Translations under genes and position numbers: made by a program
The notes under the pieces: model-generated
Told to the model about the DNA's origin: nothing
The model's database searches: none
Seen by the model: the letters and a program-made list of their open reading frames with translations, nothing else
Shown here: piece after piece, positions 1 through 56,756 of the stretch
Position numbering within the stretch: the stretch's first letter is position 1
How the letters are laid out: each line of letters begins with the position of its first letter
Assembly: GCA_900544555.1 (NCBI GenBank)
Contig: UQWD01000003.1
Location: 66,519 to 130,518 of the forward strand
Length of the DNA: 64,000 nucleotides
Source of the DNA: an uncultured Eubacteriales bacterium
GTDB lineage: Bacteria; Bacillota; Clostridia; Christensenellales; CAG-138
Direction: 5' to 3'

Positions 1-1638
1 ATGGTTGGGGGATTGAACAATACGATCGTAGTCAAGCGCGAAAGCCTTGCTTCCATATTCTTTATAATCGCTCGGCGCTCGCTCAATATGCAGCAGCGCT
101 GTGCTCGATGTAGAACCAACCTTAACGGTAACCGTTATGGGGTAAGGCTTTATATCCGGGGTTTTAAATATTAGCTCAAACGCGCCGTCGGAACTTACAA
201 CGGGGGTGCTTTCAAGCTCGGCCCCTTCAACGGTTATGGAAGCGCCTGCGGGTACCGTACCAGTAACTTTGATGGTGTCAGTAGTAGTACGCAACGCCAC
301 GTCGTCCCCAACCTTAAACACATCGCTCTGAGTTGAGGGGGCAGTGCTTTCAACCGTCAGCGTTTTGCTCGCAACCTGATACCCGGCGCGGCGAGCCTCG
401 ATCACAACCGTATGCGTACCCTGCCCGGACACCGTGGCTGTTGCCGTAAAGTTGCCGGATTCATCCACAGGGAAGGCGGTTTCGTTAACATAAACCTCGG
501 CCAGCACATCGCTGACAGTACCCGTAATCGAAAATTGGCCGGTTTGAGTTGTAACGTTATCGCCGGCGGGCTCCGTAACGGTCATCGTTAGTTTTGGAAC
601 CGCAATATCAAACGATGGTATTTTTAACGGTATCCTCTCGCCTTCAGGGCTGATGAGTGTAAAGCTCGCGCTGGGATCGACCGTATAGGTTTCCCCCGAA
701 ACAGGCTCGTCTGGAATCCAGATCGAATCGTGAATCTTTAGCTGCCGGCTGCCGCCGCTTATCGTGGAGGTATCCGTAACGGAACCCTTGACGAACTCCA
801 GCGTATATCCGTTTCGGGCATAAACCGTAATCGTATGCGCCGGATCCCCGCTTTTTGTCACGCTTTTCTCCACCTGGGCCTCGCGCGTTACGGGGTCGCC
901 GGAAAACACGCTGGAAAAGAACGCGCTTAAGCTGCCGCCATAATTCGCGTTCAAGCCGATAACGGATAATACGATGATAACGGCGAGCAGAACTACGCCG
1001 GCAATCAGGGCGATTGCGCCGCCCCTGCCCATGCCCCTGCGGCGTGCGCCGGGCTTCCTGCTTCTGCCTCGGCGCGCGGAAGCATCGCGTCCTGTATAGT
1101 CGAAAGCGCCGCTGTTGTCGATTGGAGGGGCGTATCTGCGCTGGGCGGGCGCGGCGCCTCTCTCGATTAAGGGGCTGCCATCAAATTCATCGTCAAATTC
1201 ATCCTCAAATTCATCCTCAATTTCATCTATCGTACGTTCCGGTACTGTGCGTTCCGGGGCACGACGAACCTGAGACTCCTGCGGCCTGTTCGCCCCGTTC
1301 GCCCAGGCGGCGGAACGGGAATAAGCTTCCGCGCGGCGCGCCGGCGGTACCTTTAACGTCGGCGTGAACGCGTCGCCGGAAACGGCGGCCTTGCCTTCAT
1401 CAACAGGGGGGATATCTTCATCCGTTATCGTGTTCGCGTCAAACTCCGGCTTTGGCCATTCCGGCCCGCGAACGAACCCCCAAGAAGACGCCTCATCGTC
1501 AGAGACGTAACGCCTTGGCTCCCGGCTGTTCTTGACGGGCGTTTCCTGTTCAGGCGGGTCAGCCACAAGCAATGCCGCGCAGTTTTCGCAATACTCAAGG
1601 TAATCTTCATTATGCGCTCCGCATTGTCTACAGATCAT
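1..1638 (-). CDS. Zinc-ribbon, single-pass membrane protein with extracellular beta-rich (Ig-like) repeats; 3' end cut by window edge
   Basis: Absent from the supplied ORF track. Manual minus-strand translation from ATG at 1638 (AGGAGG 7 nt upstream) gives 546 sense codons with no stop. It starts MICRQCGAHNEDYLEYCENCAALL (CxxC..CxxC zinc ribbon). An acidic DEIEDEFEDEFDDEFD tract is encoded by 4 x 12-nt tandem repeats (1181-1228). A TM helix GAIALIAGVVLLAVIIVLSVIGL is followed by repeated T/V/G-rich segments. Confidence 0.75.
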   Translation of the reverse strand, partial: MICRQCGAHNEDYLEYCENCAALLVADPPEQETPVKNSREPRRYVSDDEASSWGFVRGPEWPKPEFDANTITDEDIPPVDEGKAAVSGDAFTPTLKVPPARRAEAYSRSAAWANGANRPQESQVRRAPERTVPERTIDEIEDEFEDEFDDEFDGSPLIERGAAPAQRRYAPPIDNSGAFDYTGRDASARRGRSRKPGARRRGMGRGGAIALIAGVVLLAVIIVLSVIGLNANYGGSLSAFFSSVFSGDPVTREAQVEKSVTKSGDPAHTITVYARNGYTLEFVKGSVTDTSTISGGSRQLKIHDSIWIPDEPVSGETYTVDPSASFTLISPEGERIPLKIPSFDIAVPKLTMTVTEPAGDNVTTQTGQFSITGTVSDVLAEVYVNETAFPVDESGNFTATATVSGQGTHTVVIEARRAGYQVASKTLTVESTAPSTQSDVFKVGDDVALRTTTDTIKVTGTVPAGASITVEGAELESTPVVSSDGAFELIFKTPDIKPYPITVTVKVGSTSSTALLHIERAPSDYKEYGSKAFALDYDRIVQSPNH

Positions 1639-1825
1639 ATAAAAACCTCCTAAAAATACGGAAATAATTCAAATTTATTATATCAAACGCAGTGATTAAA
1701 AGAAACCCTTGTCTTTAATTAGAAATGCAAACATTCTTTAAACATGTTGAAGGGTTATATTTTGCAGCGCGATTGTGCTATAATTAAAAGCAGTTTTGTA
1801 TACTATTGATGAAAAGAGGGACGTT

Positions 1826-3724
1826 ATGCCGCGTCGCGTTATGAACTTAATATTGGCGTCCGCCATTTTGCTTACATTTTTTCTCTGTGCGTGCTCGAGT
1901 CAAGACAAGGCTGAGGAGGCGGACCCATATAAGGGCTTTCATTCAAACGAACGCCTGTCCGGAGGCGGCCCGGTCGAAGCGGCCAACGCGCGGAGCGTAT
2001 CGGCCGCGGCAAAGGGCGAGACAGCCCGGGTTACATTCGCTTTTTCATCCGGGAGCCGAATTTCCGATGGCTCTCAAGAGAAAGCGGCGCCCGGCATTCC
2101 GGCTTATTCCGTATATATGCTCCCATCTCCCGCGAGGCTGGTTGTGGAATTTGAGGGGCTGTCCTATTGGGATTACGACAGAGACGTTCAATTGCCCGAG
2201 GAATGGTTTCACGGTTCGTTTCAGCATATGGTAAACGGGCTTGAAACGGTTTGGGTATATTTCCAGCTTAAGAAGGACGACGTTGTTTTTCAGGTAGAAG
2301 AGCATGATGAAGGGCTCAGCATAATTTTAAAAGAAAAAACTCATGCAGCACAGACTACCGACAGCCCTGGGGGAGCGCCGGAGTTGAATTATTACGCGGT
2401 CGCCAACGCATATAAGGATTATTGCAGCGGCAATATCTCGCGTGAGATGGATATGTACCCCTGCCTCACAAGGGATGGGGATCATATCATTCTGATATCG
2501 GGGGCGTTTGAGACTGAGCAGGAAGCCAAGGATTACCGCGCCTCCACGATAAAAGCGACTGAAAACGCGCTGGCGGAACAATGGGGCGTATCCGCGCTGC
2601 GCCCGGGCTCGCTCCCTGCTTATAATGAACAACTTGATTATGCGGCGGCATATGCGCAAAATGTAGCCCGCATCGACGGAACGGATCAGACGCTCCCCGT
2701 TTTATTGCCTAACGGTCAGTACCTTACGGAGGTTCCCGGCGGTGAGGCGCTTCTTTATGCCCGGCGCATAAGCGTAGGGGTCGAAACGGATGATGAGAGC
2801 GAGGGGGAAGATGGCGACGCGTCGGCGTCGTCATACGATGAGCTTTGGATGTCGGATAAAAGGGGAGGTTCGCAAAAAAGATTGATCCGCTACGAGTTTG
2901 CGTCTATTGAACGGGCGGTATATTCGCCGGACGGGCGAAAGCTTGCGGTGCTTGAGCGTTCGTCCGAAGGCTCGCACCTGTATATTTACGACACGGACAC
3001 TTACCATTTAATAGCCGATCTGACCGAGTTGGGTTTTGGCAATATGGTGAGCGACTTCACTTGGGATAATTTCGGCGGGGCGGTATATGCGCTGAGCGGC
3101 TCCTCCGGCATGCAGATACATATGTATGATTTCTCCGTACCCGACGAGGGCAAGCGGTACAGCCTGGTGGATGATAAAGGCGCGGACGAAGGTGATATTG
3201 GGTATAGCGGCGGGGAATTGTTCTTCACGCAGTCCGACATCGACTCATCATCCATTTATCGGATAAAGCCGGAAGGCGGCGTTCGCAAACCGTTTGCCGC
3301 GGGCGGGAAATTCGCGGTTTCAGCGGATGGAAGATATATGGCGCTTTACAGAACAGGCGTTGGGGGTGAAGGCGCGTTTATACTACGCAGCATGGAAACG
3401 GGGGAAGAAAAGGAAATAGCTTGCGATTTTCCTGTGAATGAGCTTTTATGGTCGCCAAAGGCGGACAGCGTATATTACCTTGAGAACAGGCTTTCTGGAG
3501 GCGAGGGAGAGGACGGCGGAGGCGAGGAAACGGTTGACGCCGATCCTTACCCTTATACCTTATGGGTTTATGACGTTGCAAGCGGAGAATCTCGCGCTTT
3601 AGCGGACCTGGCCGGTACTTCCATTACCCCGTCGCCCGACGGAAGCGCGATTTACATACATTATGTGGATAAGGATACGATGGGTGAGCGTATAAACGCG
3701 ACTTACATTTTGAATATGGAATAA
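1826..3724 (+). CDS. Lipoprotein with C-terminal TolB/PD40-like beta-propeller repeats
   Basis: ATG at 1826 has AAGAGGG upstream. The signal/lipobox is MNLILASAILLTFFLCAC. Repeated motifs YSPDGRKLAV, VSADGRYMAL and PSPDGSAIYI are typical of PD40 repeats. The track start at 1796 is a TTG without an SD. Confidence 0.7.
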   Translation: MPRRVMNLILASAILLTFFLCACSSQDKAEEADPYKGFHSNERLSGGGPVEAANARSVSAAAKGETARVTFAFSSGSRISDGSQEKAAPGIPAYSVYMLPSPARLVVEFEGLSYWDYDRDVQLPEEWFHGSFQHMVNGLETVWVYFQLKKDDVVFQVEEHDEGLSIILKEKTHAAQTTDSPGGAPELNYYAVANAYKDYCSGNISREMDMYPCLTRDGDHIILISGAFETEQEAKDYRASTIKATENALAEQWGVSALRPGSLPAYNEQLDYAAAYAQNVARIDGTDQTLPVLLPNGQYLTEVPGGEALLYARRISVGVETDDESEGEDGDASASSYDELWMSDKRGGSQKRLIRYEFASIERAVYSPDGRKLAVLERSSEGSHLYIYDTDTYHLIADLTELGFGNMVSDFTWDNFGGAVYALSGSSGMQIHMYDFSVPDEGKRYSLVDDKGADEGDIGYSGGELFFTQSDIDSSSIYRIKPEGGVRKPFAAGGKFAVSADGRYMALYRTGVGGEGAFILRSMETGEEKEIACDFPVNELLWSPKADSVYYLENRLSGGEGEDGGGEETVDADPYPYTLWVYDVASGESRALADLAGTSITPSPDGSAIYIHYVDKDTMGERINATYILNME

Positions 3725-3910
3725 GGCGCATGCCCTTCAATTTAAAAAGCGGACGTGAAAGCTTCAATGCGCCGCTTGAAATTTGCCAACTCAGGTTATA
3801 AATGTTATCCTGAACGTACATACTCTTAACTATAAAGGAGGGTATGGCACAAGATGAAGGAACGTTATACGGATACGCTCAATAAGGGGGGTAAAGGCAA
3901 AGGGGGGATA

Positions 3911-4120
3911 ATGTCCCGGCTGAAGCTGATTGCCAGGCCCGCTTCCCGAAACGGGAACGATGAAGAGGACGTCTTTTCAGCGTTACAGATGTGGAAAGCG
4001 TCGCAGAATTATTTTGAGCAGGCTCAGGATCCTGAACTGGTCGAGTTCGCTATATATGATATGGAGGCCGCTAAACGCCGTTATATGTTTTTGCTTAAGC
4101 GGAGCCCCCGAAGGAGGTAA
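3911..4120 (+). CDS. yaaL: YaaL-like DUF2508 protein
   Basis: The motif WKASQNYFEQAQDPELVEFAIYDMEAAKRRYMFLLK matches the DUF2508 signature. GGGGGG SD precedes ATG 3911. It lies directly upstream of bofA, as in B. subtilis. Confidence 0.7.
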   Translation: MSRLKLIARPASRNGNDEEDVFSALQMWKASQNYFEQAQDPELVEFAIYDMEAAKRRYMFLLKRSPRRR

Positions 4121-4166
4121 CCGGGAAGGCGCTTGAGGTATATATTTTACTGGGAGGGTATTGGGA

Positions 4167-4424
4167 ATGTTGGGAACTATTCTGGCATATGCCGCCGGTA
4201 TCTTGATTTTGTTTGTTGTTTGCAAAATATTGGCTTTACCGCTCAAAATCATCTGGAAGCTGATAGTAAACGCGCTGGTTGGCGTAGTGGTGTTGATATT
4301 ATTCAACCTATTGGGCGGCTTAATTAACGTGACCATTCCAATTAACGCCCTCAATGCCTTGATAACGGGCGTACTGGGTGTTCCAGGCGTAATACTTTTG
4401 TTAATTCTACAATTTTTATTCTAG
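4167..4424 (+). CDS. bofA: Pro-sigma-K processing inhibitor BofA
   Basis: An ~85-aa two-TM protein with ALPLKIIWKLIVNALVGVVVL...ALITGVLGVPGVILL, typical of the BofA family. GGGAGGG SD is present. Confidence 0.8.
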   Translation: MLGTILAYAAGILILFVVCKILALPLKIIWKLIVNALVGVVVLILFNLLGGLINVTIPINALNALITGVLGVPGVILLLILQFLF

Positions 4425-18418: not shown

Positions 18419-18465
18419 CGCTTGACATTATAAGGCGCGGCGCATAAACTGTTTTTATGTATATT

Positions 18466-18699
18466 GGCGAAGACGGAGAGGAGTACGCGCGTAATTATGC
18501 GTCAGAGAGGCCGCCCCACCGGCTGAAAGGGTTGCCGGCAAAAAGGCGCGGAACGTCGCTCCCGAGCTTTCCGGGCGATATGTAGTACGGAACGGGCGCA
18601 TACCGTTATCATGCTTGAGTGGAATGTATTTTTGATGCATTCAACAAAGGTGGTACCGCGAGCCGGCCCTCTCGTCCTTTGAATGAGAGGGCTTTTGTT
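18466..18699 (+). promoter_or_regulatory. T-box leader (valine-specific) of valS
   Basis: Conserved T-box sequence AAAGGTGGTACCGCG (18647-18660). The terminator GCCCTCTCGTCCTTTGAATGAGAGGGC is followed by TTTTGTT. An AGAGA/GTAC stem I element is present. The candidate specifier GTC (Val) lies at 18555-18557, in GAACGTCG. Confidence 0.85.
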
Positions 18700-22744: not shown

Positions 22745-22821
22745 GCGCCTGTAGCTCAGCAGGATAGAGCAACGGCCTTCTAAGCCGTAGGTCCCGGGTT
22801 CGAATCCCTGCGGGCGCGCCA
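22745..22821 (+). tRNA. tRNA-Arg (TCT)
   Basis: GCGCCTGTAGCTCAG... with anticodon arm ACGGC-CTTCTAA-GCCGT and an encoded CCA. Confidence 0.9.
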
Positions 22822-22829
22822 ATTTTTGT

Positions 22830-22907
22830 GGTGGGTATAGTTCAGTTGGCTAGAACGCCAGATTGTGGCTCTGGAGGTCGTGGGTTCGAGACCCACTACT
22901 CACCCCA
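22830..22907 (+). tRNA. tRNA-His (GTG) with G-1
   Basis: Extra 5' G. Anticodon arm CCAGA-TTGTGGC-TCTGG, with the 3' end ...TACTCACCCCA. Confidence 0.9.
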
Positions 22908-22930
22908 TCTTTCAATAACGCCGGGGTTAT

Positions 22931-23005
22931 TGGGGTGTCGCCAAGCGGTAAGGCACGGGACTTTGACTCCCGCACTCGTAGGTTCAAATCCTGCCACCCC
23001 AGCCA
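22931..23005 (+). tRNA. tRNA-Gln (TTG)
   Basis: TGGGGTG acceptor. Anticodon arm CGGGA-CTTTGAC-TCCCG, with the 3' end CACCCCAGCCA. Confidence 0.9.
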
Positions 23006-23010
23006 TTTTT

Positions 23011-23086
23011 GACCCGTTAGCTCAGCCGGTAGAGCACTTGACTTTTAATCAAGGTGTCCGGAGTTCGAATCTCCGACGGGTCACCA
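23011..23086 (+). tRNA. tRNA-Lys (TTT)
   Basis: GACCCGTTAGCTCAG... with anticodon arm CTTGA-CTTTTAA-TCAAG. Confidence 0.9.
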
Positions 23087-23101
23087 TTTTTCTATCTGTA
23101 A

Positions 23102-23186
23102 GCGGGCGTGGCGGAATTGGCAGACGCGCCAGATTTAGGTTCTGGTGCCAAAAGGCGTATGAGTTCGAGTCTCTTCGCCCGCACCA
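23102..23186 (+). tRNA. tRNA-Leu (TAG)
   Basis: 85 nt with a long variable arm and anticodon arm CCAGA-TTTAGGT-TCTGG. Confidence 0.9.
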
Positions 23187-23201
23187 TTTACCTTTTTCCT
23201 T

Positions 23202-23277
23202 GCGGGAATAGCTCATTCGGTAGAGCGCCGCCTTGCCAAGGCGGAGGTGGCGGGTTCGAACCCCGTTTCCCGCTCCA
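23202..23277 (+). tRNA. tRNA-Gly (GCC)
   Basis: GCGGGAATAGCTCA... with anticodon arm CCGCC-TTGCCAA-GGCGG. Confidence 0.9.
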
Positions 23278-23283
23278 GAAAAC

Positions 23284-23357
23284 GCGGATGTAGTGTAATG
23301 GTAACACATTAGCCTTCCAAGCTGAGATAGTGGGTTCGAGTCCCATCATCCGCTCCA
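23284..23357 (+). tRNA. tRNA-Gly (TCC)
   Basis: GCGGATGTAGTGTAATGG... with anticodon loop CTTCCAA. Confidence 0.9.
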
Positions 23358-23366
23358 GCAAAATAT

Positions 23367-23442
23367 GGGCCGTTAGCTCAGTTGGTAGAGCACCTGACTC
23401 TTAATCAGGGTGTCCCGGGTTCGAGCCCCTGACGGCCCACCA
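23367..23442 (+). tRNA. tRNA-Lys (CTT)
   Basis: GGGCCGTTAGCTCAG... with anticodon arm CCTGA-CTCTTAA-TCAGG. Confidence 0.9.
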
Positions 23443-31011: not shown

Positions 31012-31499
31012 CCGTCCCGCGGCGGCTTTTCATGTATTGCTCTTATATGTAGAGACTCTTCAAGGTAACGGATGGATATATAAAACACCTTAATTCAACA
31101 GTTAAGGAACGCAGGCTAAGCATTGTATTTTACGCGAGCATTGCATGAACAAGTTAATATAAACCAAAGCCATAGATCAAAAGTATGCTGTTTGTCATAT
31201 GATATATTTTTATATAAGTAATAGGAATTCACGAGCAGACTTAATTGGTTAAAACGCAACACTTCAAAGGTTCAATAGGAGTAGCGAGTCCCCGTATCCT
31301 GAAGCAAGAATTATTTTGCGGTTTCCAATCGGTATTTTTTCAAGGTTTAGCATATCGAATTGCCAAGCTGACCGCCGAGCATTAAAGCTTAATCAAAGGT
31401 ATGTTTTCTTCAAAAACGAGTTAAAGGAATCCGGGCAAATCCGCAAGAGCGTTTATTTTGCTGCAGGAAAAGCGGGAACAACAGCCATGCAGGGCGCTA

Positions 31500-31546
31500 A
31501 ACAAAGCGGCGGGATAGATAACAGCTATCCCGCCGCTTTGTTTTCT
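31500..31546. terminator. 18-bp perfect hairpin overlapping the stop codon of the CPBP gene
   Basis: AACAAAGCGGCGGGATAG / CTATCCCGCCGCTTTGTT with a 7-nt loop and T-rich flanks. Confidence 0.7.
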
Positions 31547-32337
31547 TCCATGCTCATTTTATTGTGTGTCACAACGGTTATGATAGAAATAAGAATAATG
31601 ACGGCGTTAGCGATGAGGGTTCCCGCCCAAGTCGTTGTCATGGTGCTAAAGATAGGAGAAGCCGCATTGAACATGGTGTGAAATAGCACGCACATAAATA
31701 CACTGCTTTTTCCTGATATTTTGCAGATTGCGCCGAAGAAAAACCGAAAAGCCATGCATTGAACGGCAAACATCCACAAATTAACTAGTCCTTCTCCATG
31801 ATCTGTCCCTGGTATGAAGAAAAGGGGGATATGCCATAAAACCCAAATCAATCCAGTTATAGTAGAGGATAAAATAAAACCATACTTTCTGTTCAGTTCA
31901 GGCTGCAATATATATGCCCATCCAGCTTCCTCCAAGCCACCGATAAAAAGATTTCCCGGCAGAGAAAGAAAAAGCGTATAAAATGGAAGCGCAATTTCTG
32001 TACGTCCTGATGCTACTGCGTGAAAAGAAAAATACAATGCAAGCCCTAAAATAATGAACAAATAAGGATATATGTTATTTTTAGCATAGAAAACAGCCCT
32101 CAACCATACCTTCAAATTTGCTACTGTATTACTTTTCTTCAGAACAATATATGATGCAATAGCTGGCGACAAAATATAGATTGCGAAAGGAATATTCATT
32201 GCAAATTGCTTTAGTGTGTCAACCCAATTATACACTCTGTACCCGATTTGTCCGAGGACAATCAGAACACCTGATACAGCATAGGCTATGCAAAATGTCA
32301 GCACGACAAACTGCAATGTGATTTTTTTGCCTGTCAT
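31525..32337 (-). CDS. CPBP-family intramembrane glutamic endopeptidase (CAAX protease/Abi-like)
   Basis: Multi-TM protein with GGLEEAGWAY (EE motif) and FHTMFN (H motif). Confidence 0.75.
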   Translation of the reverse strand: MTGKKITLQFVVLTFCIAYAVSGVLIVLGQIGYRVYNWVDTLKQFAMNIPFAIYILSPAIASYIVLKKSNTVANLKVWLRAVFYAKNNIYPYLFIILGLALYFSFHAVASGRTEIALPFYTLFLSLPGNLFIGGLEEAGWAYILQPELNRKYGFILSSTITGLIWVLWHIPLFFIPGTDHGEGLVNLWMFAVQCMAFRFFFGAICKISGKSSVFMCVLFHTMFNAASPIFSTMTTTWAGTLIANAVIILISIITVVTHNKMSMEENKAAG

Positions 32338-32418
32338 GACTTGTTCTCCCAGATCTACACTTTATCAAACAATTATATATAAAACAATAATTATATTGCT
32401 TTTACTCATTCAAACTTC

Positions 32419-32628
32419 TCCGCCGAAAGCGGGGAACAGGATAAGAAAATCTGATCCCCGCTTACGTCTGCTACATTATACAGCAGCAAAATCATCTTCA
32501 CCGGAGCGTTGGTTTCGTTTGCCTTTAGCGGTGGCTCTGAACCCACGGACCCGAACTCTACCAAAGAACAAAGCGTGACAACGACAGGCAGACCGTACGG
32601 GAAAGCCTTGCGCATGCCGATTCTTTGC
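32419..32628. repeat. Unclassified conserved structured noncoding element, copy 1 of 2
   Basis: Blockwise homology to 56149-56370: CGCCG..GAAA..CGGGGAACAGGATAA.AAAATC, TTGGTTT, CCAAAGAACA, AAAGCGTGACAA, GCAGAC and GCATG. One stem shows compensatory changes between copies. No conserved ORF is present. Confidence 0.5.
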
Positions 32629-38067: not shown

Positions 38068-38144
38068 CTGGGTGTGGCGCAGTTTGGTAGCGTGCTTGAA
38101 TGGGGTTCAAGAGGCCGGAAGTTCGAATCTTCTCACCCAGACCA
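38068..38144 (+). tRNA. tRNA-Pro (GGG)
   Basis: Acceptor CTGGGTG/CACCCAG, anticodon arm CTTGA-ATGGGGT-TCAAG, T-arm GGAAGTTCGAATCTTCT, and an encoded CCA. Confidence 0.85.
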
Positions 38145-52985: not shown

Positions 52986-53146
52986 GCGCGAATCGCTTTC
53001 TTTAATGAGACAAAGAATGATTGAACACCTCCAAAAAGCTCGAAATCAATATATTATATGTGGCGAAATTATCCTCATGCACGTTCACAATCACGCCATG
53101 GGATCATACGTATAAAAGTAGAAAATTAAGGGGCGGTGAAAGGCGT

Positions 53147-54202
53147 ATGGACATTACACGGCGTTTTTTTGCGGGAAGCAATACGGCTTACGGTTTTCAG
53201 GGTTATTTTGACAGTATTATCAACATTGCGGATGTGGAACGGGTTTATATTCTTAAAGGCGGGCCGGGGGTTGGTAAAAGCGGGCTTATGAAGCGCATAG
53301 GCCAATACGCGAAGGAGCTTGGATATGAGCTGGTTTACTATCATTGTTCGAGCGATCCTGACAGCCTGGACGCGCTGACGATACCCGCGCTGAAAATCGC
53401 ATTGATGGATGGTACGGCACCGCATACCGTTGACCCGCGTTTTCCCGGCGCCGTTGATGAAATAATTAACCTTGGCGAATTTTTAAGCACGCCCGCTCTA
53501 ATTGGGCGGCGTGAGGAAATTTTTGACGTACAAACCCGAATAAGCGGTCGTTTTAATCGCGCGTACTGCTATACGCTAGCCGCCGAGAGTATGAGGACGG
53601 CGGCGAGCCTTGACTTAAGATGGAATACGGCAAAGACAAATCAATTACTGATGCAGATGTTTGAGGAACTTAACGCGTACGGCAGCGCCGCGGAACCCTT
53701 TGGTCGGGTCAAAGATCTGTACCTGTCTGCGATAACGCCGGATGGGATTGTCGACTTTACGAGTGATGCGGTAAGGAAAACCGTCTGGAGAGTACTGGCG
53801 CCATGGTATGCGGATATTACAAGCTGGTTAGACCGATACTGCGAGGTGGCCATTATGCAGGGAATGGATGTTATGCGCTGCCACGATCCGCTCAACCCCA
53901 AAAGGCTATCGCACCTCATTGTTGATAGTTCGCTTATGATTACGACTTCAACCAAGTCGGGTATCGCCGAGTTTGATGCGGATTGGGAAACGGATCTGTA
54001 TCCTTATATCATACAGGGAGATTCTGAAAAAGGCCGCGATGACAAGGCGGCGTATGATTCGCTGCTCGCCGGAGCGGTAGAATCTCTTGCCGAAGCAAAA
54101 CGCTTGCATGATGAGCTTGAACGACCTTATGCTGAGGCGATGAACTTCAAAGAAGTTGACGCTGTGCGTGAGAAATTAAAACATCAGATATTTCATAGGT
54201 AA
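53147..54202 (+). CDS. P-loop NTPase of unknown function
   Basis: ILKGGPGVGKSG Walker A, 351 aa from ATG 53147. The track start at 53021 would overlap the dpaA promoter region. Confidence 0.65.
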   Translation: MDITRRFFAGSNTAYGFQGYFDSIINIADVERVYILKGGPGVGKSGLMKRIGQYAKELGYELVYYHCSSDPDSLDALTIPALKIALMDGTAPHTVDPRFPGAVDEIINLGEFLSTPALIGRREEIFDVQTRISGRFNRAYCYTLAAESMRTAASLDLRWNTAKTNQLLMQMFEELNAYGSAAEPFGRVKDLYLSAITPDGIVDFTSDAVRKTVWRVLAPWYADITSWLDRYCEVAIMQGMDVMRCHDPLNPKRLSHLIVDSSLMITTSTKSGIAEFDADWETDLYPYIIQGDSEKGRDDKAAYDSLLAGAVESLAEAKRLHDELERPYAEAMNFKEVDAVREKLKHQIFHR

Positions 54203-54364: not shown

Positions 54365-55285
54365 TTACGATATGGATACCTGAGATACTTTGGAGGTACA
54401 CGCTTTCCTCTCCGAAACAATCATGTTATCTTTCGGCCAGCCAATCAGCATAGGTGAAGCCGGATCGTGCCGATTAAAATTATTGTGCGCCGTCAATCGG
54501 TTTTTAGTTGCATAACAATATTTGCAGCCATTGAGGCAAGTACCATAAGCTCCGACATCCACGCTTTCAATGCAGCCGCATTCATGGCGCTGCCCTTTAT
54601 CCTTATTTGAATTTAAGGAACAGCCGATTATCCGCTCTATTCGATTCTTATCAATACAGGAAGCCCGCTTAATGCCAAACTGCTGTAAATCTAATTTTTC
54701 GGAGCAGGTTGCAAGCTTTAAGCGGTGTTTTTTTGCTATTTCCGAAAAAGCTTTTCCGATGGCTTGCATTTGTTCAATACGAATATCCTGTACGATATTG
54801 CGAATATGAGAGTAGCTGTCAACGAAGCTAAAGATGCACTCGTCTACGTTTTTAATTTTCTCACACAGAGAATCAAATTGTTCAATATGATATTGCACCG
54901 AATATGTTTTGTCAAGTATAATCGGATCGTATCGCCATACAAGGCGATGTTTACCAGCCTTTTCAGATAACCTAAAAAACGAATCGAGCCGTTTTTCTAG
55001 TGAAGGCAGATTGCTCTCGCATACTTTTCCATAAGGGGTAAGCGTATACTGAAAATAGTAGTTGTAGCCTAAATCTGTAACGATATTAAGGTCATTAAGC
55101 ATGGGCGCAGGGTTTTTCGTCCAAAACACAATGCAATCCGTTATATCAGGCGATAACCGCAGTTTTGATACACGCAGCGCGTTGTATGGATTTTGAACGA
55201 GTACATAGCCAGCAAGCAATCTATTGACAAACCATTTTCCATAATAGGATGGAATATCAGTGCGGCGGCTCGCGCTTATTATCAT
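54365..55285 (-). CDS. DUF1848 domain protein (C-terminal Cys cluster)
   Basis: The N-terminus MIISASRRTDIPSYYGKWF is typical of DUF1848. C-terminal cluster: CGCIESVDVGAYGTCLNGCKYCYA. Confidence 0.75.
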   Translation of the reverse strand: MIISASRRTDIPSYYGKWFVNRLLAGYVLVQNPYNALRVSKLRLSPDITDCIVFWTKNPAPMLNDLNIVTDLGYNYYFQYTLTPYGKVCESNLPSLEKRLDSFFRLSEKAGKHRLVWRYDPIILDKTYSVQYHIEQFDSLCEKIKNVDECIFSFVDSYSHIRNIVQDIRIEQMQAIGKAFSEIAKKHRLKLATCSEKLDLQQFGIKRASCIDKNRIERIIGCSLNSNKDKGQRHECGCIESVDVGAYGTCLNGCKYCYATKNRLTAHNNFNRHDPASPMLIGWPKDNMIVSERKACTSKVSQVSIS

Positions 55286-55559: not shown

Positions 55560-55830
55560 CGCCACGGGGAAGTTAACGGAAAACCACTTTTCCTGTCTGC
55601 TGACAGGCTACGACACTTAACCCAAACGCTTGACGGGGAAATCGAATGGCTACAAGCTAAGATTGACCGGTAGAACACCGAACCGACAGCTTAAGGGCTG
55701 ACAAGTTTATTGAACTTGTGAAGCGCCACACCGAGTTTACAGGGTTTTACGCTTCCCTTTTAATTGAGTTTGTGGAAAAGGAAATCGTCCATGAAGCCAT
55801 AGAATGGCGGAGTGAGGGAGCGGGAAGTTA
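55560..55830 (+). pseudogene. Decayed 3' fragment of a large serine recombinase gene
   Basis: Three-frame fragments: GEIEWLQAKIDR*, then DKFIELVKRHTEFTGFYASLLIEFVEKEIVHEA... This resembles the conserved C-terminal FxELVxKYTxxxELTxxLLxEFVxKIxVHE of large serine recombinases. Multiple stops and frameshifts are present. Confidence 0.6.
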
Positions 55831-55833
55831 AAT

Positions 55834-55926
55834 TCATCTTTTATTTTTTCTTTTGAATCCATAATATATAGCTATGCCGGCACATATTATCGCCGCTCCT
55901 ATCGCTATCCACAAAGCTAAACTCAT
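55834..55926 (-). CDS. 30-aa hydrophobic peptide with basic C-terminus (type I toxin-like / small membrane protein)
   Basis: GGAGGG SD 7 nt upstream of ATG 55926. It encodes MSLALWIAIGAAIICAGIAIYYGFKRKNKR. A TATAAT box lies ~85 nt upstream. It is below the track cut-off. Confidence 0.5.
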   Translation of the reverse strand: MSLALWIAIGAAIICAGIAIYYGFKRKNKR

Positions 55927-56148
55927 TGATATTCCCTCCTAACAAAAAATCCCGATTTGTTGATTAAGCTTTTTCGACAAAGGTGAATTGAATAATCACA
56001 TTATACTGCATTTAACCGTTTCAAACAATGTCAAGTGATCTTTTCTCTATCCGTTCCACCTATCCAGCCCGTCAATGGACGATCACAAATGACGTGAAAA
56101 AATCTCCACCTTTAGAACCATTGACTAGCAGGATTTTTGCCGTGGCAT

Positions 56149-56370
56149 TTCGCCGTTGAAAACGGGGAACAGGATAAAAAATCCTATCGCCCGTTTCCGT
56201 CCGCTTCATTTTCGGCAAAACCGGCTCCACTGGTGCGGCGGCAATTATTTGGTTTGACGGTGGGTCCGCCCCCGCACCCCCGGCCTAGCCCAAAGAACAG
56301 AATTAAGGGCAAAGCGTGACAATCAGATGCAGACACTTAGAATTTTTACGCAGCCGTCAAACCCGCATGG
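56149..56370. repeat. Unclassified conserved structured noncoding element, copy 2 of 2
   Basis: Homologous blocks shared with 32419-32628. This copy also has an 11-bp inverted repeat AAGCGTGACAA (56312-56322) / TTGTCACGCTT (~56381-56391), followed by TTGTTTTTT. Confidence 0.5.
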
Positions 56371-56756
56371 TTATGGGCTTCTTGTCACGCTTAAAGCCTT
56401 GTTTTTTAAGGGCGGTAAGGGTTTTATACCACCTACCCCCCGAAAACGGCTTCTAACCGTCTACGCCCCCTTTTTTTACCACCCCTAAAAAGTTCCTCTT
56501 GACAAAAGCCCTATGAGTTGTTTCTTGGCCGTTTAATTGAAAAGTGGCGGGAAGATTCTAAAATCGCGGGAGTATGATTATGTGATGAAACAGCGCCGCA
56601 TAGGTTGATTTCACAATCGGCTGCGGCCGAACAGCTTTTCAGCGGTTAATTGCCCGGCATTAGTAAACGCTATTAGATGAATGTTCTTATATTTGTTTTA
56701 TTTGCCGGAAAATGCACATATGATTTACAACAGGATTTGCGAATGGAGGCATTTTT

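Follow-up and report, generated by a model that had tools for sequence, protein, structure and literature searches.

A stretch of 64,000 nucleotides from an uncultured Eubacteriales bacterium (the window) carries two copies of a related element, raising the question of whether the element is a cis- or trans-acting RNA of an integrative element, as a first-pass annotation had proposed, or a DNA sequence that travels with one. Our analysis makes it probable that the element is a decayed ssoU-type single-strand origin of the pUB110 kind, left behind by an integrative mobilizable element (IME). As a copy of a known origin type amid integrative-element debris, it would be an ordinary relic of mobile DNA.

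The extent of copy 2 was assessed with nhmmer, blastn and a covariance model, R1, which together place it at 56043-56313 on the minus strand. A Clostridial family profile from which copy 2 had been left out matched it across profile positions 4 to 285 (nhmmer E 5e-67), while 56050-56303 showed 75 to 80% identity to IME loci by blastn and R1 matched 56060-56222 with 106.8 bits. The element reported earlier at 56149-56420 is real, but its start lies about 100 nt further upstream, at approximately 56043-56050. It includes a hairpin, HP1 (56062-56134, minus strand), whose outer arms (56062-56078 and 56118-56134; inverted repeat I1) are 82% complementary. Its inner stem GTAGTATTTTTT has been deleted, as seen in the family alignment and in non-standard pairs in the model alignment, and its 3' arm bears a -35-like TTGACG on the minus strand. 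An RSB-like stem, P1 (56135-56220, minus strand), follows, pairing TTTTGCCG at 56135-56142 with CGGCAAAA at 56213-56220 (inverted repeat I2 and pair counts); within it are an internal loop and the long hairpin P2 (56160-56196). Whereas intact members possess a -10 of the form TA(N)AAT and a spacer of 16-17 nt, copy 2 retains a degenerate GAAAAT (56208-56213, minus strand) and a spacer of 15 nt. The far end of the element (56257-56298, minus strand) comprises, according to the alignments, a distal hairpin, P4 (ACGGTGGG..CCCCCGC), and the CCAAAGAAC block at 56290-56298, which is invariant; double-sided changes occur there in helices 7-8. The single-stranded DNA fold of copy 2 is largely gone (z -2.1). 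Copy 2 is almost certainly a decayed, non-functional relic within approximately 1 kb of IME debris.

That debris includes the C-terminus of a decayed large serine recombinase (55561-55846, plus strand), which aligns with residues 436-518 of the 679-aa recombinase of an intact IME locus (L003; tblastn E 5e-9). It lies some 300 nt from the start reported earlier, as had been noticed from the sequence. The ORF for a 30-aa hydrophobic peptide, described as about 220 nt away, is also present in the ORF list (55834-55926, minus strand); this putative gene sits in a position analogous to the reverse-oriented cargo of three IME loci (L003, L016 and L011).

The first-pass annotation had also extended the element by a long hairpin and U-run, read as a possible intrinsic terminator. 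The observation itself was accurate: a perfect 11-nt inverted repeat (I3), AAGCGTGACAA at 56312-56322 and TTGTCACGCTT at 56382-56392, is 100% complementary with 59 nt between its arms, and AAAGCCTTGTTTTTT comes after it. Such a repeat would be expected about 0.02 times in a 600-nt stretch by chance, a rough estimate rather than a tool-computed value. Copy 1 (32414-32573) indeed lacks the inverted copy. The inference that the hairpin extends the conserved element did not survive. Between 56303 and 56414 no blastn alignment to any IME locus was obtained, and the segment 56304-56413 (no strand assigned), which contains the repeat and a T-run at 56402-56407, aligns with no family member and stands in place of approximately 67 nt of intact IMEs. 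Its fold z-scores are -1.35 (plus strand) and -2.22 (minus strand). Immediately beyond it, 56414-56480 (no strand assigned) is a block (GGTAAGGGTTTTATAC..CGAAAACGGCTTCTAACCGT) that intact IMEs also have downstream of their element, at 84-94% identity (blastn E ~1e-13). An intrinsic terminator consists of a short G+C-rich stem, a loop of 3-8 nt and a T-run immediately after; a scan of 55800-56800 returned no terminator-like site, and 56312-56407 was rejected as one, given that its 11-bp stem encloses 59 nt and that the segment is absent from all relatives. The AAAGCGTGACAA block, taken as conserved, is restricted to the two window copies and occurs at 0 of 48 related genomic loci. The hairpin and T-run are a local rearrangement private to copy 2.

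A pattern scan identified 48 true loci of the family in Clostridia; all derive from one exact-match pattern, so the sample is not unbiased. The element spans approximately 290 nt and adjoins MobA/MobL relaxase genes in IMEs. The gene order of these IMEs is serine recombinase(s), DUF3847 protein, MobA/MobL relaxase, reverse-oriented cargo, element and coupling protein, and those with intact copies encode large serine recombinases together with the relaxase and coupling protein. The cargo abutting the element is variable and the genes downstream of it are not constant between loci; in the main group, a weak hairpin and T-run follow the element in the plus sense. Many copies are near-identical across assemblies labelled Lachnospiraceae, Oscillospiraceae-type genera, Eubacteriaceae and Christensenella, and near-identity across bacterial families is typical of mobile DNA. 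The earlier suggestion that the element travels with an integrative element was therefore well founded, with intact copies residing in IMEs and both window copies lying amid such debris (tblastn, blastn). Two further searches gave chance matches: a viral-contig scan with the 15-mer CGGGGAACAGGATAA yielded 30 loci with a best family-profile E of 0.03, and a metagenome scan for CCAAAGAACA..AAAGCGTGACAA yielded a single match, inside a coding sequence.

The other window copy (copy 1, 32414-32573, minus strand) is partial, matching profile positions 118-274 only (nhmmer E 3.3e-29) with 73-76% identity to IME loci by blastn. It retains P2, the -10 (TATAAT, minus strand), one strand of P1, and P4, and lacks HP1 and the other P1 strand; its single-stranded DNA fold is likewise largely gone (z -2.2). 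Copy 1 is a second, truncated relic. Upstream of it, 31357-31497 (plus strand) is a remnant of a MobA/MobL relaxase 3' end, 71-77% identical to the corresponding gene end at six IME loci (blastn E down to 4e-17; tblastn E 5e-4). Between remnant and copy lies a reverse gene (31525-32337, minus strand) for an Rce1-like/CPBP protease (PF02517), as originally reported, so that remnant, reverse CPBP gene and copy 1 reproduce the IME order of relaxase, reverse cargo and origin. The membrane-protein genes noted on the opposite strand beside both copies are thus in the IME's reverse-oriented cargo slot between relaxase and element. Genes for a relaxase, a coupling protein or an intact recombinase are absent from the window, as is an oriT; the nic motif occurs there no more often than chance.

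The fold of the family comprises three parts, HP1, P1 and P2, with a consensus of 63 pairs in which 95.1% of cells are paired. Fifteen pairs have changed on both sides, versus 6.1 in shuffles (0 of 500) and 5-7 with partners slid. As single-stranded DNA, the intact element of Oscillibacter sp. 1-3 (NZ_KE159708; L016 5456-5748) folds with -72.7 kcal/mol on the minus strand (z -8.1) and -60.2 kcal/mol on the plus strand (z -5.6). The extensive, imperfect single-strand structure of ssoU-type origins is therefore present in the family, as evidenced by covariation and a z of -8.1. On the minus strand of intact members, the stacking of HP1 on P1 assembles a sigma-70-like promoter: a -35 (TTGACN) in the HP1 3' arm, a composite spacer of 16-17 nt (8 + 8-9 nt across the HP1/P1 junction) and a -10 (TA(N)AAT), of which the -12 T is paired and positions -11 to -7 lie in the internal loop. 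The HP1/P1 junction could not be closed in L081, so the composite -35 may not extend to every Bacillus member. In a separate observation by eye, CTYCATTYT was a candidate for long-range pairing with AGAATNNAG; it was set aside because its 5' half is the -10 region.

The RSB-like sequence TTTTTGCCG(T) is nearly invariant in the family alignments and, as judged by eye, resembles the pT181-type RSB, TTTATGCCGAGAAAA (PMC6395029); the family thus appears to carry the RSB of ssoU-type origins. CS-6 (TAGCGT/A) is absent from the terminal loop of P2, which is A-rich (GGATAAAAAAATCC) in all members, and an ssoA-type identity was rejected for this reason.

Although R1 was built from Clostridial IME copies only and covers HP1, P1 and P2, it matched nt 1318-1492 of pUB110 over its full length (92.5 bits, E 1e-23), a match also found by the nhmmer family profile (E 1e-8). 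We take this region to be palU/ssoU in view of its position, its synteny with pMV158 and what Boe (1989), van der Lelie (1989) and Kramer (1999) reportedly describe. Plasmid feature tables annotate no palU/ssoU feature at these coordinates, so the assignment of the pUB110 bases to ssoU is presumptive and follows from position and synteny rather than annotation. The pUB110 minus strand folds with a z of -7.9 into an identical architecture, with promoter-like boxes TTGCTG and TACACT separated by 7+10 nt. On its nicked strand the order is ble, element, mob, mirroring the tetL-ssoU-oriT-mobM order of pMV158 (PMC5737340), with oriT and mob beside the element rather than inside it. Furthermore, the BA3-1 region adjoining ble is said to contain the lagging-strand signal (PMC7006159). 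R1 also matched six small Bacillus/Priestia rolling-circle plasmids with 57-86 bits, and blastn detected plasmids of this kind and a microvirus, the latter sharing the HP1 hairpin alone; the Bacillus version recurs in 644 plasmid records. The closest relatives are accordingly the lagging-strand-origin region of pUB110, small rolling-circle plasmids and a microvirus. The ssoT of pTA1060/pTA1040 was dismissed as a relative, with no R1 or nhmmer match in L084 or L085; the ssoT-like stretch of L081 adjoins the element without being part of it.

The functional strand, previously considered unresolved, can now be assigned: it is the minus strand, from which a templated primer RNA would be plus-sense. 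The -10 TA(N)AAT is conserved only on this strand. A single MOBQ nic motif, AAGTGCGCC(C/T)T, is present at each IME locus (22 of 22), always on the minus strand and a short way upstream of the relaxase gene; it was retained over a candidate oriT on the plus strand upstream of the DUF3847 gene (an inverted repeat with GCGCCC), which was dropped in favour of the exact motif. The pC194-type nick motif of pUB110 sits on the strand bearing the -10. The minus strand is the one displaced in that plasmid; it also carries the RepL or wHTH genes of L082, L089 and L090 and is the strand that the microvirus packages. Counts of G.T versus A.C mismatches favour neither strand (16 versus 14 events). The active fold thus lies on the displaced or transferred strand, the orientation of ssoU-type origins. 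At the IME loci, approximately 2-2.5 kb plus cargo separate the element from the 3' end of the strand that is transferred.

The homology, the fold and the strand assignment are shown by the analysis; polymerase binding, the primer and its extension are inferred from what is established for ssoA/ssoU origins and Frpo. On that basis, an intact element would operate as follows. The minus strand would become single-stranded after relaxase nicking, either in rolling-circle replication of the excised IME or upon entry into a recipient, and would then fold, HP1 abutting P1 and P1 enclosing the internal loop and P2. HP1 stacked on P1 would mimic a sigma-70 promoter at which host RNA polymerase could start, copying the P2 3' arm into a short plus-sense primer of about 5'-..CGCCGCCGAAAACGGGGAACAGGAU. 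Extension of this primer by DNA polymerase would yield the complementary strand.

The same promoter architecture would serve an Frpo-like single-stranded DNA promoter, in which the folded minus strand mainly drives the plus-sense genes to its right, with priming secondary; its targets, before the strand becomes double-stranded, would be the coupling-protein gene or cargo genes (restriction-modification, for example). Since the genes to the right are plus-sense, the transferred minus strand is indeed their template, and Gram-negative plasmids express their leading-region genes from ssDNA promoters (PMC11541004, PMC6294495). We nevertheless regard this reading as unlikely: the homologues in tiny RCR plasmids and pUB110 are without a downstream gene to express, downstream genes vary between loci, on the transferred strand the element is close to the 3' end rather than in the leading part, and the weak hairpin and T-run of the main group follow it in the plus sense. 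Frpo itself both primes and transcribes (cited in PMC4595007). That the fold of intact IMEs is a Gram-positive counterpart of this dual kind, and, separately, that the orphan window copies have been co-opted, we hold to be improbable; such a counterpart would prime second-strand synthesis and, with the incoming strand as template, would also transcribe the neighbouring coupling-protein or cargo genes in a plus-sense burst. The two window copies are 74% alike and both are kept in one genome, a persistence that could reflect some retained or co-opted role. The intact TATAAT of copy 1, approximately 140 nt upstream of the CPBP gene, could exemplify such a role and may be that gene's promoter.

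A structured small RNA or cis-regulatory leader of the integrative element, transcribed from the plus strand between a promoter (TTGACC, 17 nt, TGCCAT) and the hairpin and U-run, is very unlikely. The covariation-supported fold would suit an RNA equally, a plus-strand promoter-like site lies ahead, and a weak hairpin and then a T-run occur in copy 2 and the main group. However, searches of Rfam 15 gave no relevant match at E<10 for either copy and none at the gathering threshold across the window, and the supposed promoter has its -35 and spacer in paired segments of the conserved fold, while its -10 lacks an A at -11 and varies between members. The RNA folds of both window copies on both strands are unremarkable (z -0.3 to -2.2), the terminator scan was empty, neighbouring genes are inconsistent and homologues occupy origin positions in ssDNA replicons; the RNA proposal was accordingly set aside. 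A site acting in double-stranded DNA (an oriT, a recombination or attachment site of the serine recombinase, or an operator) might be read from the long inverted repeat of HP1, the abutting variable cargo and the original definition of RSB as a recombination site (PMC5703833). It is, in our judgement, likewise very unlikely, as the canonical MOBQ oriT (an inverted repeat with AAGTGCGCCCT) is elsewhere, upstream of the relaxase gene, pUB110 has its oriT and mob outside the element, and the element also occurs in plasmids without a serine recombinase. Moreover, conserved internal loops, compensatory changes and a strand asymmetry of 12.5 kcal/mol argue for a folded single strand.

On the preferred reading, that of a decayed ssoU-type origin, a candidate new structured RNA is removed and explained as mobile-element debris. 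The broad-host-range ssoU type of lagging-strand origin would then occur also in chromosomal IMEs of gut Clostridia, with related copies in small Bacillus rolling-circle plasmids. The family alignment illustrates clearly how single-stranded DNA, once folded, can imitate an open promoter complex, and R1 may be used to annotate such origins, which RNA and protein libraries leave unflagged, and to mark IME boundaries and relics.

Comparison with known systems places the family closest to ssoU of pUB110/pMV158, with which it shares a two-domain ssDNA fold in which HP1 abuts P1; as in pUB110, it combines a composite promoter spacing of 17 nt, an RSB-like sequence and a location on the nicked strand beside mobilization genes. 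It differs in its higher G+C content, in the sequence of the P2 hairpin and distal part (P4, CCAAAGAAC), which have diverged from pUB110, and in its carrier, a chromosomal IME with a MOBQ (MobA/MobL) relaxase and serine recombinases rather than a MOBV rolling-circle plasmid; the window copies, unlike the pUB110/pMV158 ssoU, are decayed. Single-strand origins adjoin the relaxase gene in ICEBs1 (PMC4595007), Tn916 (PMC9154091) and IMESag-rpsI (PMC5090054), whose sso1, sso916 and ssoA are likewise integrative-element origins on the relaxase-nicked strand. However, sso1 is of the pTA1060 (ssoT) type, to which R1 gives no match, and IMESag-rpsI carries an ssoA, unlike the ssoU-type family described here; relative to the displaced strand, the relaxase gene reads sense in ICEBs1 and antisense here, where it enters last. 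The ssoA origins of pT181 and pLS1 similarly have a long imperfect hairpin with an RSB-like sequence at its base and mimic an RNA-polymerase-type promoter, but span approximately 160 nt, whereas the family spans approximately 290 nt, with the extra hairpin HP1 and no CS-6. Finally, Frpo and ssi (F, ColIb-P9) are alike in architecture, no sequence relation being seen: in both systems a folded single strand presents a -35 and a -10, the latter imperfectly paired, but Frpo acts in the leading region to drive ssb, psiB and ardA, whereas the element described here lies late on the transferred strand.

The conserved element that occurs twice in the window, as copy 1 (~32414-32573) and copy 2 (~56043-56313), is an ssoU-type lagging-strand origin of replication, an ordinary element of a known kind, and both copies are decayed relics. 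The sequence at 56149-56420 matches its description in the first-pass annotation: a perfect 11-nt inverted repeat (AAGCGTGACAA, 56312-56322, and TTGTCACGCTT, 56382-56392; gap 59 nt) is followed by AAAGCCTTGTTTTTT, and copy 1 has no equivalent inverted copy. When an intact large serine recombinase was used as tblastn query, the serine-recombinase debris was recovered as a decayed C-terminal part (55561-55846, E 5e-9); the 30-aa ORF occupies minus-strand positions 55834-55926, and the neighbour of copy 1 is indeed an Rce1-like/CPBP protease gene. The element is present as noted, but its true start lies ~100 nt further upstream. The AAAGCGTGACAA block, described there as conserved, is common to the two window copies only, and a terminator scan reported no site at the hairpin and T-run proposed as an intrinsic terminator.

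Relatives were sought with a pattern of two invariant blocks, GGGAACAGGATAA and CCAAAGAAC, 100-130 nt apart. Fifty genomic loci matched, 48 of them real relatives and nearly all from Clostridia, although this sample is not unbiased since a single exact-match pattern found every locus. In the main group, the order is large serine recombinase(s) (Resolvase, Recombinase, Zn_ribbon_recom and DUF4368 domains), DUF3847 protein, MobA/MobL relaxase, at least one reverse-oriented cargo gene, the element and a VirD4/TraG-type coupling protein, which is how an integrative mobilizable element (IME) is organised. Diverged members are surrounded by variable cargo with no constant neighbour. Many near-identical copies occur in assemblies labelled Lachnospiraceae, Oscillibacter, Anaerotruncus, Acutalibacter, Eubacteriaceae and Christensenella, and many lie on short contigs, as is typical of recently transferred mobile DNA. 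One full-length copy belongs to an archaeal assembly, where its contig is short (L014, Methanosarcina spelaei contig_229, 4661 bp; 3073-3364); it reflects either contamination or inter-domain transfer. In several loci (L003, 219-2516; L016, 5950-6650) another element, carrying a serine recombinase, interrupts the downstream coupling-protein gene after ..VTDPKG, which points to tandem accretion of IMEs targeting that gene. We know of no published description of Clostridial IMEs as carriers of an ssoU-type origin.

The fold was derived from a 24-sequence alignment (A3), on which RNAalifold and a hand-refined structure agreed. Hairpin HP1 has three helical segments with conserved internal loops GTAGT/CTCC; stem P1 pairs TTTTGCCGTT with AACGGCAAAA and encloses a long hairpin, P2; beyond these lie a distal hairpin, P4, and a closing stem. 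Across the 63 pairs, 95.1% of cells pair. Changes on both sides were seen at 15 pairs, compared with 6.1 ± 1.7 in shuffles (0/500) and 5-7 with partners slid, and the covariation score was 0.125 versus 0.033-0.044.

When an intact copy was searched by blastn, matches appeared between the genes of two small mobilizable plasmids from Bacillus/Priestia and in an intergenic stretch of an ssDNA phage, a chicken microvirus. The Bacillus version is present in 644 plasmid records, mostly small rolling-circle/mobilizable plasmids of Bacillus, Enterococcus and Staphylococcus; among them is pUB110, matched at ~1318-1500, a region we take to be palU/ssoU (Boe 1989; van der Lelie 1989; Kramer 1999). A profile built from the Clostridial family without copy 2 matched copy 2 over its full length (E 5e-67), the distal two-thirds only of copy 1 (E 3e-29), nearly all of the element in B. 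badius pPM6 (E 3e-14) and part of it in pUB110 (E 1e-8) and the microvirus (E 5e-9). A covariance model spanning HP1, P1 and P2 (R1), built from 14 Clostridial copies only, matched pUB110 1318-1492 at full length (92.5 bits, E 1e-23), six Bacillus/Priestia plasmids at full length (57-86 bits) and HP1 alone in the microvirus (53 bits); copy 2 scored 106.8 bits and copy 1 51.8 bits. R1 did not match the ssoT origins of pTA1060 and pTA1040. Additional compensation is found in pUB110, at TTTTGTCCGTT/AACGGACAAAA in P1 and AGGT/ACCT in HP1.

In the microvirus (L083, Chicken microvirus mg4_164, MN379631), HP1 is intergenic at 2496-2562, and the packaged strand has TATAAT and a motif of the TAGCGT type close by; this region may be the complementary-strand origin. 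Three loci (L021, L044 and L048) carry a second origin-like module ~20-120 nt downstream of the element, comprising a hairpin GTCAATGGG..CCCATTGAC, an RSB-like ATATGCCGCAAAAG and a CS-6-like TAGCGG, an arrangement that suggests two origins in tandem, one ssoU-like and one ssoA-like, as pMV158 has. Another case of two tandem origin types is B. wiedmannii p22591 (L081), where a pTA1060-like (ssoT) stretch at 2860-2975 adjoins the ssoU-like element at 2990-3290 in the same orientation.

Counts of wobble versus A.C did not decide between the strands; the minus strand, complementary to the alignment orientation, is favoured by five further lines of evidence. Directly after a P1 strand, the minus strand alone has a conserved -10 hexamer, TA(N)AAT (TAGAAT, n=14; TAAAAT, n=5; TATAAT, TACAAT, TGTAAT and TAGAAA, n=1 each), and its plus-strand counterpart (TGCCAT, TGTCAT and others) is without A at -11. 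The Bacillus plasmids have TATAAT or TACAAT, and pUB110 TACACT. The minus strand is the displaced strand in pUB110, where the record's minus strand encodes rep, aadD, ble and mob (1074 to 4360 across the record start) and also holds a pC194-type nick sequence, TCTTATCTTGATA, upstream of rep. L082, L089 and L090 have their RepL or wHTH genes on the family's minus strand, as the microvirus has all of its genes; Microviridae package the mRNA-sense strand. All 22 IME loci extending far enough have a single MOBQ nic motif, AAGTGCGCC(C/T)T, which is on the minus strand, preceded by an inverted repeat and just upstream of the relaxase gene. In the intact locus L016, this oriT (3500-3560, minus strand; same position in 21 other loci) has the repeat ACCACAT/ATGTGGT followed by TAAGTGCGCC(C/T)T, immediately upstream of the relaxase gene and on the opposite strand to it. 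Predicted ssDNA folds likewise agree with the minus strand (L016, -72.7 kcal/mol, z -8.1, versus -60.2, z -5.6, for plus; pUB110 minus strand, z -7.9).

An RNA of the integrative element, as previously suggested, is an unlikely reading: neither copy had a relevant Rfam 15 match at a cut-off as loose as E<10, and RNA folds of both copies were unremarkable on both strands (z -0.3 to -2.2). Travel with an integrative element was borne out, the main-group relatives sitting in IMEs and the window copies in IME debris. A role as oriT, attachment site or operator is also unlikely, given the canonical oriT elsewhere in the IMEs and evidence pointing to a folded single strand. An Frpo-like promoter, driving early expression of plus-sense genes to the right of the element, is less likely than an origin, as homologues occur in tiny plasmids with nothing to express and the downstream genes are inconsistent.

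RNA polymerase is known to make the primer at ssoA/ssoU origins and at Frpo (see the summaries in PMC4595007, PMC5703833 and PMC8860593), and by analogy we infer the same mechanism in the Clostridial family. In minimum-energy minus-strand folds HP1 directly follows P1 without a linker. Stacking of the two would make the HP1 3' arm and P1 5' strand one continuous non-template strand, in Clostridial copies CCCTTGACG-GTCTGGAT / TTTTGCCGT-TAGAAT (/ being the HP1-P1 junction), providing a -35, a 16-17 nt spacer (8 + 8-9 nt; pUB110, 7 + 10 nt) and a -10. T at -12 would form the last P1 pair, with A-11 to T-7 placed in an internal loop, resembling an open promoter complex. Transcription by RNA polymerase would next proceed along the P2 3' arm, which holds the complement of the invariant block CGGGGAACAGGATAA, yielding a short plus-sense primer for complementary-strand synthesis. 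Starting from the nic site, which precedes the relaxase gene, the transferred IME strand would run away from that gene, so that the origin would enter late, ~2-2.5 kb plus cargo before the end; this fits the usual sso position shortly upstream of the leading-strand origin.

The window copies have lost much of this architecture. Copy 2 is without the inner HP1 stem (GTAGTATTTTTT), its outer HP1 stem has three mismatches, its -10 is degraded to GAAAAT with a composite spacer of 15 nt, and its ssDNA fold reaches only -48.4 kcal/mol (z -2.1). By blastn, 56050-56303 is 75-80% identical to IME loci and 56414-56480 84-94% identical to the block 3' of the element in IMEs; the 110 nt between (56304-56413) align with nothing in these loci. 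The hairpin and T-run belong to this rearranged insert, which is private to copy 2 and folds unexceptionally (z -1.35 plus strand, -2.22 minus). A further perfect 10-nt inverted repeat (GGTTTGACGG, 56251-56260; CCGTCAAACC, 56354-56363) joins the copy 2 body to the insert, which may derive from a rearranged origin piece. Copy 1 retains P2, TATAAT and P4, without HP1 and one P1 strand. Upstream lies a remnant of a MobA/MobL relaxase gene 3' end (31357-31497, plus strand; blastn, E down to 4e-17), then the reverse CPBP/Rce1-like gene (31525-32337, minus strand) and the partial element (32416-32570); because this order is that of intact elements, copy 1 is a second IME relic. The opposite-strand membrane-protein gene noted beside each copy thus corresponds to the IME's reverse cargo slot. 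Genes for a relaxase, a coupling protein and an intact recombinase are all missing from the window, and nic motifs do not exceed chance there; with neither relaxase gene nor oriT, neither copy's own element could expose it as single-stranded DNA. Other neighbours of copy 2 are an ORF with weak STAND-NTPase-like matches (53021-54202, plus), a DUF1848 protein (54365-55285, minus) and a GerM-like (Germane) lipoprotein (56757-57737, plus), the last suggesting a spore-forming Firmicute host. Elsewhere are a T-box leader (18461-18682, plus; 108 bits), an eight-tRNA-gene cluster (22745-23439, plus) and tRNA genes at 38068 (plus) and 9035 (minus).

The family carries an RSB-like TTTTTGCCG. In pT181 the RSB reads TTTATGCCGAGAAAA (PMC6395029); origins of the ssoA, U, T and W types are all described as having an RSB (PMC5703833). 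On the pUB110 minus strand the element lies between ble and mob, mirroring the tetL-ssoU-oriT-mobM order of pMV158 (PMC5737340), and the BA3-1 region adjoining ble has been described as carrying a lagging-strand initiation signal (PMC7006159). A single-strand origin beside a relaxase gene is likewise established in ICEBs1 (PMC4595007) and Tn916 (PMC9154091) and has been proposed for IMESag-rpsI (PMC5090054).
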